A DNA stretch of 64,000 nucleotides from the sequence record OR062946.1; one strand, given 5' to 3'. The position numbers and the translations under genes are program-made. This document shows positions 13,975-54,450 of the stretch, one piece after another. Position 1 is the first letter of the stretch, and every line of letters begins with the position of its first letter. The DNA is from Escherichia phage 310Ecol104PP. The notes under the pieces were generated by a model, which worked only from the letters and a program-made list of their open reading frames with translations, was not told where the DNA came from and ran no database searches.

Positions 13975-14304
13975 TCAATTAGAAAATAAATTTATCCAAG
14001 ATTGTTCTTTAATTAAAAATGGCTCAGAATCATATGCCATTAAACTCTGTGTGATTAGTCCTTTAAAAGGCCCATCAATAAATTCCATGGTAAAATATGG
14101 AATTTTATTCATTAGCCGTGCATTAGGAGCAGTACATAAAACTCTGCATCCTTTGAATACACCTTTTTGTAATTTGTATTGCTTGGGATAAAATTCGCTC
14201 AAAATGTTGTTATTTGCCAAAATTTCAAAATGATTCACCAATTTATTTTTAATAGTTTTTGGCGAAAAATAAAGATATTCGAAAAGCTGTGTGTCTGTCA
14301 TCAT
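13975..14304 (-). CDS. hypothetical protein (about 109 aa)
   Basis: ATG at 14302-14304 overlapping stop of upstream gene. Confidence 0.4.
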
Positions 14305-14840
14305 TGCATTCCGATTACGAAAAACTGCGGACGAGTAATACCACCAATGCAACATTTACTATTACAGCAGTAGTGTACAGTGTCAATATGGACGCTATAA
14401 ATCTTATCCATATCAGGAGATTTGACAGGCTCATCGATTATATACAAAATTCGCGAAAGCGATAAACCTCTGAACTTACTTCCTTTATTACCAATAAAAC
14501 TGCGCACAGAATCAGTAAATAAACGAAAACGTATATCATCATTAGAATAACGCGAAAATTCCTTTTTAATGTTATTTGCAGAAATTTTAGCGTAAGCTGA
14601 AGTATTAGAAAGAACAATAACTGTTCCGCCATCATACAGCCAATTAGCAGCAAAGTTAGTCACAGCAATTGATTTACCGGATTGACGTCCACCATCTATA
14701 CGAAGTGTGCAGTACTGTTTAAGTAATTCTTCAAATGGCGGGATATATTCGTTTTTACAAATTTCTTCTACTCTAGCATCAGAATGGTGTGTAAAAGCAT
14801 TCATCAGGGATAGATACGGGCCAGTTAAAAATGTTCTCAT
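14301..14840 (-). CDS. small P-loop protein (about 179 aa)
   Basis: Walker A-like GGRQSGKS; ATG at 14838-14840 (MRTFLTGPY). Confidence 0.45.
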   Translation of the reverse strand: MRTFLTGPYLSLMNAFTHHSDARVEEICKNEYIPPFEELLKQYCTLRIDGGRQSGKSIAVTNFAANWLYDGGTVIVLSNTSAYAKISANNIKKEFSRYSNDDIRFRLFTDSVRSFIGNKGSKFRGLSLSRILYIIDEPVKSPDMDKIYSVHIDTVHYCCNSKCCIGGITRPQFFVIGMQ

Positions 14841-14981
14841 TTTATTCTCTCTAAATTTGGGCCATTCCATGGCGCATGAATTGTCCATTTCTGTATTTAC
14901 CCATTACCGCACTCAGGCTCGACCTTATTACAGGTTGGCGGGAATCCCTTATAGAATCATAAGGTCCAGGTTGTTCCCATA

Positions 14982-15455
14982 TTATTTGAATGATTTGACG
15001 TACTGAATAGAACCTTTACTATTCACAAAGGCAATTTTACCATTTTTGTTATACATGGTAGCAGTACGTTGATAACCATAAGTTTGTTTACCAGATTGAT
15101 AACCAACTAATGCAAAATTATCTTCACCCATTTTATTCTGCTTAGCGCGAATGCGTTCATGGCCATGTGCCATAAGAACCTTAGCATCACCCGTTGCAAT
15201 GGATCTACGAGTTTTTTCATCTTCAACTGTATTAACAAAGTCGTCAAATGAATCAAATTTAGCATGAGATTTATTATACAGTTTTCCATCTACTGCATAA
15301 TTATATCCTTGTACATCCATCTCAACTTCTGTACCGTCATCCAATACAGCAGTGATTTTCTGTCCTTTTTTAAATTTCAAAAGATCAGTAAAAGATTCAG
15401 CAATAATTTGAGAATTAATAGCTGCTTCAGTAATAAATTCTTGATATGTTTTCAT
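14982..15455 (-). CDS. internal protein candidate with capsid targeting sequence (157 aa)
   Basis: N-terminus MKTYQEFITEA matches the T4 internal-protein CTS (MKTYQEFIAEA-type); sits at the T4 ipII/ipIII position next to e. Confidence 0.65.
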   Translation of the reverse strand: MKTYQEFITEAAINSQIIAESFTDLLKFKKGQKITAVLDDGTEVEMDVQGYNYAVDGKLYNKSHAKFDSFDDFVNTVEDEKTRRSIATGDAKVLMAHGHERIRAKQNKMGEDNFALVGYQSGKQTYGYQRTATMYNKNGKIAFVNSKGSIQYVKSFK

Positions 15456-15471
15456 GTGTATCCTTTAATTT

Positions 15472-15789
15472 TTATTCTTTAGGGAAGTTTTTAGAATATG
15501 CATCATAAAGCTTATTTCCAATACGGCGGAAAACTCTAGCCGCAAAACGATTTTCTGGGTTTTTAATCATGATTTGCATCATATAAGTACCCGCGTCAGA
15601 AAGAGCTTCTTCATAGTACCCGTTAATTTCTTTAAGAGTCCTACGTTTACCACCAGGACCATCAACAGTGATTTTCCATTTACCTGTAGAAGTGCGACTT
15701 GGCGGCTCAACTTGTTCAATCCAGATATAACCACCTTCTACACGTTGTCCTGCAGCAGATTCTGCAATAAATTCTTTATACGTTTTCAT
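15472..15789 (-). CDS. internal protein candidate with capsid targeting sequence (105 aa)
   Basis: N-terminus MKTYKEFIAES; adjacent to the other CTS gene and to e. Confidence 0.65.
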   Translation of the reverse strand: MKTYKEFIAESAAGQRVEGGYIWIEQVEPPSRTSTGKWKITVDGPGGKRRTLKEINGYYEEALSDAGTYMMQIMIKNPENRFAARVFRRIGNKLYDAYSKNFPKE

Positions 15790-15823
15790 GTGTTTCCTTT
15801 AAATATTTTAATTAGTAACTGTG

Positions 15824-15857
15824 AATATACTATCACAGTTCTAGGAGAAAGTAAACA
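15824..15857 (-). promoter_or_regulatory. T4-type early promoter upstream of the CTS genes (minus strand)
   Basis: gtaaac at 15851-15856 and atatactatc near 15825. Confidence 0.5.
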
Positions 15858-15860
15858 ACT

Positions 15861-16391
<531 letters not shown>

Positions 16392-16847
16392 TTAAAAGAG
16401 GTTGTTCATTATTCGGTAAAGTGAAGGACCCATCACATATTGCCACTGAGTGCGAGGAATAAGAGCAAAAGCATCCATCTCTGGAATCATAACGCCATCT
16501 TTATTTTCAAAATAAGACTCGCAATGGCAATTTCTGAACATCTCATGCTCTACTGGAATCGTATAATAAAACAACTGTAGGTCTTTATTACTAGAATATT
16601 TAAATACACCTAGGTCTTCTAGAAGGTCTGGATTATAATTGCTAAAACCGGTCTCTTCTAAGCATTCTCTTCGTGCTGCATCTAATGCGCTTAAATCAGA
16701 ATTTTCTACACGGCCCTTTGGAATATCCCAACGATGTGCCATCATTCCAGGCTTACGAGAACCAGTAACCCGACCCATAAATAAATCTTTATCTTCTGTC
16801 ATAAAAATAATACCAGCTGATAATGTTTTCATTTTAATTTCCTGCAT
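16392..16847 (-). CDS. nudE: Nudix hydrolase
   Basis: Nudix box GRVENSDLSALDAARRECLEETGF; 151 aa adjacent to e as in T4. Confidence 0.8.
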   Translation of the reverse strand: MQEIKMKTLSAGIIFMTEDKDLFMGRVTGSRKPGMMAHRWDIPKGRVENSDLSALDAARRECLEETGFSNYNPDLLEDLGVFKYSSNKDLQLFYYTIPVEHEMFRNCHCESYFENKDGVMIPEMDAFALIPRTQWQYVMGPSLYRIMNNLF

Positions 16848-23898: not shown

Positions 23899-24123
23899 TT
23901 ATTCAACACCAGCGGCTTTCAAAAGTTTCTTAAGATTGGCAACACCTTGAGCAGAAAATGTGACCTTTCCACCTTTTTCACTGATAGAACCAACCAATTT
24001 AGCAAGTTTATCATTAGGAATTTTTTTAAAATCAGCCAATGTTCCATCAAAGGTTTTTGAAACAAAAGGCAGTTCATCTTCATGTCTTTTAGCTTCTACA
24101 ATAAATTTTTGATATGTTTTCAT
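23899..24123 (-). CDS. internal protein candidate with CTS (about 74 aa)
   Basis: ATG at 24121-24123 gives MKTYQKFIVEAK; Lys-rich small protein. Confidence 0.6.
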   Translation of the reverse strand: MKTYQKFIVEAKRHEDELPFVSKTFDGTLADFKKIPNDKLAKLVGSISEKGGKVTFSAQGVANLKKLLKAAGVE

Positions 24124-24156
24124 TTTAGTTTCCATTTAGATGTTTTGTTTTGATAG

Positions 24157-24191
24157 GGTAATAATATCACTACCCCATCTAAAAGTAAACA
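24157..24191 (-). promoter_or_regulatory. T4-type early promoter (minus strand)
   Basis: gtaaac at 24185-24190 and taataatatc near 24159. Confidence 0.5.
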
Positions 24192-24200
24192 GTTTATAAA

Positions 24201-24509
24201 CTATTTTATTCCGCGTGATGCAATTGTGTTCTGCCGTTTAACGCCAGTTTGTTTAAAGTCATGATTGTCGATTTGATCGGTACGAGCAACTCCGAATGAT
24301 GATTTGATTTTAGCCTTAGATCCTTTAGTTATAGAAATAAACATCTCGGAAGCCCCTTTCTTAAAGTCCGAGGCGATTACTTCAACGCCGTTCTTAGCAA
24401 GTGACTTCAGAATTGCCTCTGCATACTCATCGTCAAGACTCGTCTGAGTATTAATAACGAATGTCTTTGGCGCAGCCGCTTCATTGATAAATTCTTTAAA
24501 TGTTTTCAT
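24201..24509 (-). CDS. internal protein candidate with CTS (102 aa)
   Basis: N-terminus MKTFKEFINEA. Confidence 0.6.
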   Translation of the reverse strand: MKTFKEFINEAAAPKTFVINTQTSLDDEYAEAILKSLAKNGVEVIASDFKKGASEMFISITKGSKAKIKSSFGVARTDQIDNHDFKQTGVKRQNTIASRGIK

Positions 24510-24535
24510 TTTATTTTCCTAATTAATTTTGATGA

Positions 24536-24570
24536 GATAATAGTACCACAACCCTATTTAAAAGTAAACT
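24536..24570 (-). promoter_or_regulatory. T4-type early promoter (minus strand)
   Basis: gtaaac at 24564-24569 and taatagtacc near 24538. Confidence 0.5.
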
Positions 24571-24842
24571 CATTTTAAATAAATTGCGTATTTTTTATAA
24601 CCCGCTGACTCATGACGAAGACCCTTATCATTAGCAAAACGCTCAATGTTGTTAATTTGATTCTGGTCAAGTTCAGAGATGTCAAACACGAAAAAGTTAC
24701 GTTTGTTACCAACTGTTACATAGTCAGTTAAATCAATATCATATAGGTAATTGATGTCAGCAATCAAAGTCTTGACAGCTTTGCTAATTTTTACTTTTTC
24801 GTTAAAAGCAGCTTCAGCAATAAATTCTTGATACGTTTTCAT
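24570..24842 (-). CDS. internal protein candidate with CTS (90 aa)
   Basis: N-terminus MKTYQEFIAEA (canonical CTS); coordinates from ORF track. Confidence 0.6.
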   Translation of the reverse strand: MKTYQEFIAEAAFNEKVKISKAVKTLIADINYLYDIDLTDYVTVGNKRNFFVFDISELDQNQINNIERFANDKGLRHESAGYKKYAIYLK

Positions 24843-28936: not shown

Positions 28937-30647
28937 TAACCTTAATTGGTTTGTTGGTGTTGTTGAAGATAGAATGGACCCATTAAAATTAGGTCGTGTT
29001 CGTGTTCGTGTGGTTGGTCTGCATCCACCTCAAAGAGCGCAAGGCGACGTAATGGGTATTCCAACAGATAAATTACCATGGATGTCAGTTATTCAACCTA
29101 TAACTTCTGCAGCAATGTCTGGAATTGGAGGCTCCGTTACTGGTCCGGTAGAAGGAACTAGAGTTTATGGTCATTTTTTAGACAAATGGAAAACTAATGG
29201 AATTGTCCTTGGCACGTATGGTGGAATAGTTCGCGAAAAGCCTAATAGACTTGAAGGATTTTCTGACCCGACTGGACAGTATCCTAGACGTCTAGGAAAT
29301 GATACTAACGTATTAAACCAAGGCGGAGAAGTAGGATATGATTCGTCTTCTAATATTATCCAAGATAGTAATTTAGATACTGCGATAAATCCTGATGATA
29401 GACCACTATCAGAGATTCCAACTGATGATAATCCAAATATGTCAATGACTGAAATGCTTCGCCGTGACGAAGGATTAAGACTAAAAGTTTATTGGGATAC
29501 TGGAGGATATCCGACAATTGGTATTGGTCATCTTATCATGAAGCAGCCAGTTCGTGATATGACCCAAATTAATAAAGTTTTATCAAAACAAGTTGGTCGT
29601 GAAATTACCGGAAATCCAGGTTCTATTACAATGGAAGAAGCGGTAACTTTATTTGAACGTGATTTAGCTGATATGCAACGTGACATTAAATCACATTCTA
29701 AAGTTGGCCCAGTTTGGAAAGCAGTTAATCGTTCTCGTCAAATGGCATTAGAAAATATGGCATTTCAGATGGGCGTTGGCGGTGTAGCTAAATTTAACAC
29801 AATGTTAACAGCTATGTTAGCCGGAGATTGGGAAAAAGCATATAAAGCTGGTCGTGATTCATTGTGGTATCAACAAACAAAAGGCCGTGCATCCCGTGTT
29901 ACCATGATTATTCTTACAGGTAATTTGGAATCATACGGTATTGAAGTTAAAACACCAGCTAGGTCTTTGTCAGCAATGGCTGCTACTGTAGCAAAGTCTT
30001 CTGATCCAGCTGACCCTCCTATTCCGAATGATTCGAGAATTTTATTCAAAGAACCTGTTTCTTCATATAAAGGTGAATATCCGTATGTTCACACAATGGA
30101 AACTGAAAGCGGTCATATTCAGGAATTTGACGATACCCCGGGACAAGAACGATACAGATTAGTTCATCCGACTGGAACATATGAGGAAGTATCACCGTCA
30201 GGAAGAAGAACAAGAAAAACTGTTGACAATTTGTATGATATAACAAATGCTGATGGTAATTTTTTGGTAGCTGGCGATAAAAAGACTAACGTCGGTGGAT
30301 CAGAAATTTATTACAACATGGATAATCGTCTCCACCAAATAGATGGAAGCAATACAATATTTGTGCGTGGCGATGAAACTAAGACGGTTGAAGGTAATGG
30401 AACTATCCTAGTCAAAGGTAATGTTACTATTGTAGTTGAAGGTAATGCTGACATTACAGTTAAAGGGGATGCTACCACTTTAGTTGAAGGAAATCAGACT
30501 AATACAGTAAATGGAAATCTTTCTTGGAAAGTTGCTGGGACAGTTGATTGGGACGTTGGTGGTGATTGGACAGAAAAAATGGCATCTATGAGTTCTATTT
30601 CATCTGGTCAATACACAATTGATGGATCGAGGATTGACATTGGCTAA
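28920..30647 (+). CDS. 5: baseplate hub subunit and tail lysozyme gp5
   Basis: 575 aa starting MEMISNNLNWFVGVVED; internal lysozyme domain (EMLRRDEGLRLKVYWDTGGYPTIGIGHL) and C-terminal VxGxxxV beta-helix repeats. Confidence 0.95.
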   Translation: MEMISNNLNWFVGVVEDRMDPLKLGRVRVRVVGLHPPQRAQGDVMGIPTDKLPWMSVIQPITSAAMSGIGGSVTGPVEGTRVYGHFLDKWKTNGIVLGTYGGIVREKPNRLEGFSDPTGQYPRRLGNDTNVLNQGGEVGYDSSSNIIQDSNLDTAINPDDRPLSEIPTDDNPNMSMTEMLRRDEGLRLKVYWDTGGYPTIGIGHLIMKQPVRDMTQINKVLSKQVGREITGNPGSITMEEAVTLFERDLADMQRDIKSHSKVGPVWKAVNRSRQMALENMAFQMGVGGVAKFNTMLTAMLAGDWEKAYKAGRDSLWYQQTKGRASRVTMIILTGNLESYGIEVKTPARSLSAMAATVAKSSDPADPPIPNDSRILFKEPVSSYKGEYPYVHTMETESGHIQEFDDTPGQERYRLVHPTGTYEEVSPSGRRTRKTVDNLYDITNADGNFLVAGDKKTNVGGSEIYYNMDNRLHQIDGSNTIFVRGDETKTVEGNGTILVKGNVTIVVEGNADITVKGDATTLVEGNQTNTVNGNLSWKVAGTVDWDVGGDWTEKMASMSSISSGQYTIDGSRIDIG

Positions 30648-53387: not shown

Positions 53388-53812
53388 TGCTTCTGATCCC
53401 TGAAACTCATGAATTAGTTCTCGAGAATGTCGAAGCACTTATTCCTGAAGCACAGGGTCGCTTTGACGAATTGTCTTCTGCTTTAAATAAAGACGATATA
53501 AATACAATTGTCGAGAATATGCTTGATGATGAAACTGATTTAGCGGTTGCATTAGCTTCTATTAATGAAAATATGCCGTTAAATGAATTCATCGTTAAAC
53601 ATGTTTCCGCCCGTGGTGAAATTACTCGCACTAAAGACCGCAAAACGCGTGAACGTAATGCATTTCAAACCACTGGGCTGTCTAAAGCAAAACGTAGACA
53701 AATTGCTCGTAAAGCTACCAAAACGAAGATTGCCAATCCAGCAGGTCAATCTCGTGCTCAGCGTAAGCGTAAAAAAGCTCTTAAACGCCGTAAAGCATTA
53801 GGATTAAGCTAA
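53387..53812 (+). CDS. 68: prohead core protein gp68
   Basis: 141 aa in T4 order. Confidence 0.85.
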
Positions 53813-54450
53813 TGAATGAACCCCAATTACTAATTGAAACTTGGGGTCAACCTGGCGAAATTATTGATGGCGTGCCAATGCTTGAATCTCACGATGGAAA
53901 AGACTTAGGTTTAAAACCGGGTTTATACATCGAAGGAATATTCATGCAAGCGGAAGTTGTCAATAGAAATAAACGTCTTTATCCAAAACGCATATTAGAA
54001 AAAGCGGTAAAAGACTATATTAATGAGCAAGTTTTAACTAAACAAGCTCTCGGAGAATTAAATCATCCTCCACGCGCTAATGTTGACCCAATGCAAGCCG
54101 CTATCATTATAGAAGATATGTGGTGGAAAGGAAATGACGTATACGGACGAGCTCGTGTTATTGAAGGTGACCATGGTCCTGGAGATAAATTAGCAGCTAA
54201 TATTCGTGCCGGATGGATTCCAGGAGTTTCTTCTCGTGGATTAGGTTCATTGACTGACACAAATAAAGGTTATCGTATCGTAAACGAAGGATTCAAATTA
54301 ACTGTAGGTGTTGATGCAGTATGGGGTCCAAGTGCTCCAGATGCATGGGTAACTCCTAAGGAAATTACCGAATCACAGACGGCGGAAGCCGATACAAGTG
54401 CCGATGACGCCTATATGGCTCTCGCAGAGGCCATGAAAAAAGCGTTATAA
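53812..54450 (+). CDS. 21: prohead core scaffold protein and protease gp21
   Basis: 212 aa in T4 order. Confidence 0.95.
   Translation: MNEPQLLIETWGQPGEIIDGVPMLESHDGKDLGLKPGLYIEGIFMQAEVVNRNKRLYPKRILEKAVKDYINEQVLTKQALGELNHPPRANVDPMQAAIIIEDMWWKGNDVYGRARVIEGDHGPGDKLAANIRAGWIPGVSSRGLGSLTDTNKGYRIVNEGFKLTVGVDAVWGPSAPDAWVTPKEITESQTAEADTSADDAYMALAEAMKKAL

Follow-up and report, generated by a model that had tools for sequence, protein, structure and literature searches.

The interval between gene e and vs.8 in the 64,000-nucleotide stretch of DNA analysed here (the window) is one of the variable (hyperplastic) internal-protein loci of a T4-like phage (Tequatrovirus). We read it as a modular ip locus that carries an ip10-like gene and ip4, from which the denV module is absent and whose modules are exchanged by recombination, and we put the probability of this reading, its predicted consequences included, at about 85%. 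For a variable locus as well known as this one, the arrangement e-ip10-ip4-vs.8 without denV is ordinary, and many deposited genomes contain it, with identities of up to 99.7%.

The region is transcribed from high to low coordinates in the order nudE (16392-16847, minus strand, as are the features that follow), e, an ORF of 105 aa, an ORF of 157 aa, a spacer of 93-141 nt, vs.8, vs.7, vs.6 and onwards to regB. Gene e (T4 lysozyme; 15861-16355), which forms the left-hand conserved flank, was 97% identical to T4 e and matched Pfam Phage_lysozyme, and a motif scan identified the late-promoter motif TATAAATA as an exact match twice upstream of the gene, at 16389 and 16376. As the preliminary description of this DNA had stated, the two adjacent minus-strand ORFs start with a capsid targeting sequence (CTS), MKTYKEFIAES in the 105-aa protein (15472-15789) and MKTYQEFITEA in the 157-aa protein (14982-15455), and they adjoin the vs.8 region directly, with the latter ORF at 14982 and vs.8 below it.

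The N-terminus of T4 IPII and IPIII is MKTYQEFIAE, and each CTS of the window differs from it by one substitution (MKTYKEFIAE and MKTYQEFITE). The rules for a CTS have been defined experimentally: Tyr4 and Phe7 serve targeting, and processing by gp21, which cuts after L/I-x-E, depends on Ile8 and Glu10 (PMC9026906). Y4, F7, I8 and E10 are present in both window proteins. At the DNA level, the CTS belongs to a 54-nt direct repeat, which together with the match to the first ten residues of IPII and IPIII indicates that the shared N-terminus is not due to chance. The e-vs.8 interval is one of two ip loci, the other lying between 57B and the tRNA genes, and both predicted mature proteins are small and basic. 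The gp21 prohead protease (gene 21, 53812-54450, plus strand; 100% identity over 212 aa to the prohead protease of phage FelixPlatter) is encoded within the window together with the adjoining gp22 scaffold and gp23 capsid protein.

The 157-aa protein matched Pfam DUF7412 (PF24183) with residues 1-157 on model positions 1-158 (E=6e-96; 319 bits, with the gathering score at 27). It was also assigned to phrog_3155, 'internal virion protein' (E=6e-102). It is 100% identical in amino acid sequence to the T2 protein encoded directly after e (AP018813), and the RB51 record names its gene Ip4, "similar to T2, RB70 Ip4". The predicted mature product is about 16.5 kDa with a pI of 9.1, and a second I-A-E site is found at residue 20. 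The T2 record AP018813 mis-annotates Ip4 as 'valyl tRNA synthetase modifier', and many more of its product names are clearly wrong. An NCBIfam search gave nothing above cutoff, and a literature search on Ip4, Ip7 and DUF7412 brought up inositol-phosphate papers only.

The 105-aa protein was assigned to phrog_3966 (E=6e-34), the Ip10 family, and is 70% identical at 100% coverage, CTS included, to 'Ip10 [Shigella phage SP18]'; at this full-length identity the SP18 protein is too divergent for a common target to be assumed. It also matched, at 99%, a cluster that bears the name 'IpII internal head protein'. The predicted gp21 cut after E10 would leave a mature product of about 10.8 kDa with a pI of 9.6. 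An exhaustive HMMER search of a representative library with mature Ip10 returned one further CTS-bearing relative (P0018, 52%). The remaining matches were to long repeat proteins; the strongest of them, at E=5e-12, summed up many weak FG-GAP repeat matches and was rejected as spurious. As far as these searches reach, the Ip10 family is tiny and confined to CTS-bearing phage proteins.

An alignment of the two CTS proteins with IPII and IPIII had been proposed. Once the CTS was removed, the similarity came to E=0.46 for Ip4 against T4 IPII and E=1.1 for the 105-aa protein against T4 IPIII, and T4 IPIII as query found no match in the window at E<=1e-3. Judged by these comparisons, Ip4 is not an orthologue of IPII, and the Ip10-like protein is not an orthologue of IPIII. 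The location at the ipII/ipIII position given in the preliminary description therefore holds for the slot between e and vs.8, which is the same as in T4, and fails for orthology. PDB profile searches for relatives of Ip4 and Ip10 with solved structures returned noise only (E of at least 0.2), and AlphaFold2 models on the Ip4 alignment (13 sequences; pLDDT 50) and the Ip10 alignment (4 sequences; pLDDT 48) were too poor for fold searches. The names ip10-like and ip4 are the appropriate ones for annotating these genes, in place of ipII/ipIII or "hypothetical".

The earlier observation that denV is missing was borne out throughout the window. TBLASTN with T4 DenV, the query being identical to the T4 record, gave a best E of 2.9 over all 64 kb. 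With the DenV of Shigella phage A2, a divergent allele, no protein match was obtained in the window (E limit 1e-3), and DNA remnants of denV did not rise above chance. A homologue elsewhere nearby, which the preliminary description had allowed for, was thus found in the 64-kb window with neither the T4-type nor the A2-type query. The two DenV alleles are 78% identical to each other, against 92-97% for flanking genes, and occupy different places: the T4 type (L003, 4440-4856) adjoins vs.8, and the A2/RB51 type (L002, 4598-5014) adjoins e. In the IMG/VR contig L017, a T4-type denV lies upstream of ipIII.

These searches covered 64 kb of a genome estimated at 165-170 kb, to which no public record is equal, and denV might have moved to another variable region of the phage outside the window. 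The occurrence of denV at two different positions among relatives would agree with such a move. However, both known positions are inside the e-vs.8 interval, which is wholly within the window, and tblastn detected no DenV anywhere in the two complete genomes that are denV-less at the locus, FelixPlatter and T2 (AP018813). We consider a displaced denV very improbable. No paper stating that T2 is without denV was found in the literature search, and this point was established on the T2 genome directly.

It had also been proposed that the absence of denV is a T2-like trait. The label is a fair one in that T2 carries a 100% identical 157-aa protein at the locus and is without denV genome-wide. The window is not simply of T2 type, though, since T2 has no Ip10-like gene, and the denV-less state is common and not distinctive.

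A neighbouring ORF, such as 14301-14888, could in principle be a highly divergent DenV, as the preliminary description had also considered. Nothing beyond its position would suit this, and the chance of it is close to nil: the ORF shares 92% identity with Vs.8 of T4, a phage in which Vs.8 and DenV coexist, it belongs to phrog_1488, and it has no match to the DenV-family Pfam Pyr_excise, only weak P-loop/terminase-like signals. We therefore rejected this candidate and assign the ORF to vs.8 (14301-14840, or to 14888 from an upstream in-frame ATG). The gene is annotated as vs.8 in FelixPlatter at the corresponding coordinates (L001, 3101-3640).

Between vs.8 and ip4 lies a conserved 93-nt segment (14889-14981, minus strand) that marks the right-hand boundary of the cassette in alignments with relatives. 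The right end of the cassette is always GGGAACAACCTGGACC..., whether ip4, denV, ipIII or the RB18 gene stands upstream, and T4 has this same boundary sequence after its denV stop codon. It is conserved in all the relatives examined and has a GC content of 45% versus 36%. A hairpin in it reads CCTTAT/ATAAGG in the window and FelixPlatter, CCTCAT/ATGAGG in most others and CCTCAT/GTGAGG in A2, T2 and RB18, a pattern equivalent to a single compensatory double change plus one wobble. The 93 nt matched no Rfam family, and the single-sequence fold had an energy that is not unusual (z-score 0.57).

In T4 this boundary (L003, 4339-4413; 14841-14952 of the window) is annotated as the first 25-40 or so codons of a 219-aa Vs.8. 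At the T4 Vs.8 start, the window has ATA for ATG, and an 8-nt indel shifts the frame; the vs.8 start is therefore most likely at 14840 (MRTFLTG...). This suggests that the 5' extension of T4 Vs.8 may be non-coding. In T2 vs.8 (L004, 5757-6400; AP018813), T4 Vs.8 was matched in three separate reading-frame pieces, which points either to a pseudogene or to sequencing errors.

The T4 order e-ipIII-ipII-denV-vs.8, with denV on the vs side of ipII, agrees with the preliminary description. The same description had looked for an empty denV slot between the ip genes and vs.8. The closest denV-positive relatives, A2 (98.3%) and RB51, instead have denV between e and the first ip gene, and the relevant empty slot is therefore the e-ip10 spacer (15790-15860, minus strand).

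This spacer includes the ip leader AATTAAAATATTTAAAGGAAACAC. It also contains an early-promoter-like site, TTTACT (15855-15850), N17 and TAGTAT (15832-15827), with one mismatch in the -10 hexamer to the T4 early promoter consensus TTTACW-N17-TAYWAT. An 8-bp inverted repeat, AACTGTGA (15840-15833) and TCACAGTT (15824-15817), surrounds the -10 hexamer. The site resembles PeSLs (cassettes of an early promoter plus a stem-loop), which have been proposed to mediate shuffling in T4-type phages (PMC4122927); it was called by the T4-specific motif scan and not by a generic sigma-70/terminator scan. Compared with T2 and T4, the window spacer lacks 16 nt that are present there between two TTACT repeats. 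No promoter was found between ip10 and ip4, and the border of these two genes is marked by the leader and CTS repeat, not by a PeSL. Since the ip10 stop and the ip4 start are 16 nt apart and ip4 lacks its own promoter-like site, the two genes are probably co-transcribed.

The repeat search revealed two 54-nt direct copies, the upstream at 15754-15807 and the downstream at 15420-15473 (both minus strand; 83% identity, spacing 334 nt), which bracket the ip10-like gene and span the ribosome-binding leader and the CTS codons. Comparison of the spacers showed that the block before every ip gene at the locus reads AATTAAAATATTTA(CATTTA)AAGGAAACAYATG, followed by the CTS codons. Ahead of T4 ipIII, T2 ip4 and the window ip10-like gene, this leader has an identical sequence. 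The 3' end of denV in A2 and RB51, five codons and the stop (KNIYI*), is itself formed by the leader block, which means that the denV module is fused to this block in these phages.

Based on these features, we suggest the following scheme for the origin of the layout. Every ip module opens with one common block of roughly 54 nt, in which the CTS codons follow the leader AATTAAAATATTTA..AAGGAAACAYATG, and the cassette ends at the fixed GGGAACAACCTGGACC... sequence. denV would be an optional module, carried by relatives either at the e side (A2/RB51 type) or between ipII and vs.8 (T4 type). During mixed infections, homologous recombination between the repeated blocks would add, remove and swap modules, and such recombination would give every combination of denV and ip10, present or absent.

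All four combinations do occur and are common in public genomes. Junction-spanning queries were run against 50,697 phage records; the resulting counts are rough, as they include duplicate GenBank/RefSeq records and depend on the joining of BLAST pieces. The denV-ip10 junction was found in 28 records and the denV-ip4 junction in 165 (A2 type included). The e-ip10 junction was found in 57, again with the A2 type included, which leaves about 29 with the layout of the window, and ip4 lay within about 640 nt of e in 256. Individual layouts are equally varied. Besides T4, RB51 has e-denV-ip4-vs.8, A2 has e-denV-ip10-ip4-vs.8, T2 has e-ip4-vs.8, and RB18 has e, another 157-aa gene and vs.8. The IMG/VR contigs show e-denV-vs.8 (L015), e-denV-ip4-vs.8 (L016), e-..-denV-ipIII-vs.8 (L017), e-..-ipIII-vs.8 (L018) and e-ip10-ip4-vs.8 (L019). 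Recombination between common blocks is the most economical account of this pattern of presence and absence, and it fits the known shuffling of T-even variable regions.

The layout could also have arisen by a recent simple deletion of denV from an A2-type ancestor (e-denV-ip10-ip4), with no modular recombination. A2 is 98.3% identical to the window on both flanks, the difference is essentially the denV block of about 410 bp, and short repeats (TTACT; ATTTA) stand at its edges. However, the window leader AATTAAAATATTTAAAGG is the form found before T4 ipIII and T2 ip4, while the A2 form ends in ...TTTACATTTAAAGG and doubles as the 3' end of denV, which argues weakly against descent by deletion from an A2-type parent. 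Moreover, the window holds no denV remnant, and the fully populated two-by-two pattern fits repeated exchange. A simple deletion is thus rather unlikely, and we favour recombination between modules, for which the locus would be a clean textbook case of shuffling via a common leader and targeting-sequence repeat.

Phage FelixPlatter (Bas40, MZ501065; bas40_0230 to bas40_0233) has the same layout, vs.8-ip4-ip10-e, with 99.7% DNA identity over 2.2 kb. Both of its ip proteins are 100% identical to those of the window and are annotated there as hypothetical proteins only. Its other ip locus differs, with an ipI-like gene where the window has ip9-ip7-ip8, and overall the window is a different mosaic. 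The type represented by Shigella phage A2 and Escherichia phage JLBYU22 shares the two ip genes (99-100% aa identity) and the 98.3% identical flanks but carries a 417-bp denV between e and ip10, its last codons drawn from the ip leader. RB51 and RB70 (e-denV-ip4-vs.8), from which the name Ip4 comes, have the same ip4 gene and boundary but possess denV and lack ip10. T2 resembles the window in having e followed by an identical Ip4, the same right-hand boundary, a genome without denV and a common Ip7 (99%). It differs in that the Ip10-like gene is missing, the e-ip spacer is 16 nt longer and vs.8 is broken over three frames. T4 shares the slot, the CTS, the leader, the spacer after e with its early-promoter-like site and inverted repeat, and the right-hand boundary. 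The mature parts of T4 IPII and IPIII, in contrast, are unrelated to Ip4 and Ip10, and T4 has denV on the vs.8 side, 78% identical to the A2-type allele.

For the whole window, the best match over 25 kb had 98.2% identity at 95% coverage, and no identical public record was found. For the first 25 kb the nearest record is FriedrichMiescher (98.2%), for the last 25 kb it is KAW1E185 (97.2%), and at the e locus it is FelixPlatter (99.7%). Going by these matches, the source phage is an unsampled mosaic Tequatrovirus.

Several functional consequences would follow from the proposed layout. Without denV, the phage-encoded pyrimidine-dimer glycosylase would be missing, and the phage is expected to show T2-like, not T4-like, UV sensitivity. 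The Ip10-like protein and Ip4 would be synthesised with their CTS of ten residues, join the scaffolding core, be cut after Glu10 by gp21 acting in trans and be injected with the DNA. In the host they would most likely block specific nucleases. Type IV restriction enzymes of the GmrSD kind are the targets of T4 Ip1, Ip2 and Ip3, one variant for each protein, and Ip2 and Ip3 are missing from T2 and T6 (PMC12373910). Phage Bas37 has a non-homologous CTS protein, Bas37_0260, that acts as an inhibitor of McrBC (bioRxiv 10.1101/2025.11.20.689424). In a review of the T4 head, the internal proteins of T-even phages are presented as a varied defence set with the CTS alone in common (PMC3012670). No sequence similarity beyond the CTS was found between Ip4 or Ip10 and Ip1-3 or Bas37_0260. 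By analogy, Ip4 and Ip10 are probably anti-restriction factors with targets of the same kind.

It is conceivable, on the other hand, that the CTS-bearing proteins are scaffold helpers or DNA-condensing basic proteins without a host target and are not injected anti-defence factors. T4 IPIII mutants assemble heads more slowly and form more polyheads (PMC9026906), both predicted mature proteins are basic (pI 9.1-9.6), and Ip4 and Ip10 have no known target. Nevertheless, the internal proteins with an assigned function are so far all type IV restriction inhibitors, namely Ip1, Ip2 and Ip3 (PMC12373910) and Bas37_0260 (bioRxiv 10.1101/2025.11.20.689424), and rapid non-homologous replacement of the kind seen at this locus is typical of arms-race genes (PMC3012670). 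We regard a purely structural role as unlikely and keep to anti-restriction as the probable function. More tentatively, Ip4 and the Ip10-like protein might be specialised inhibitors, each directed at a different host defence for which no inhibitor has so far been assigned, such as an additional subtype of GmrSD or some other modification-dependent nuclease. If this is true, the combinations of denV and ip10 among relatives would constitute a natural near-isogenic phage set for target finding.

The second ip locus, from 57B to the tRNA genes, holds three further CTS genes in tandem at 23899-24842 (minus strand): ip9 (24570-24842; 95.6% to RB15 Ip9), ip7 (24201-24509; 99% to RB15 and T2 Ip7) and ip8 (23899-24123; 100% to RB15 Ip8), the last of which starts with MKTYQKFIVEA. 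An early-promoter-like GTTTAC-N17-TAYTAT site stands before each of the three genes. Together with the two genes at the e-vs.8 locus, this gives five internal proteins in the window and no T4-type ipI. Outside the window, FelixPlatter (L008, 40967-41131) and T2 (L011, 17859-18023) have a 54-aa ORF beside the primase gene with a CTS-like start, MKTYKEFIKED, and a low-complexity Lys/Glu-rich tail, which may represent a further packaged peptide. A second lysozyme-like stretch, 43% identical to gene e, is located in the window at 29439-29936 and is presumably the lysozyme domain of the baseplate hub protein gp5.
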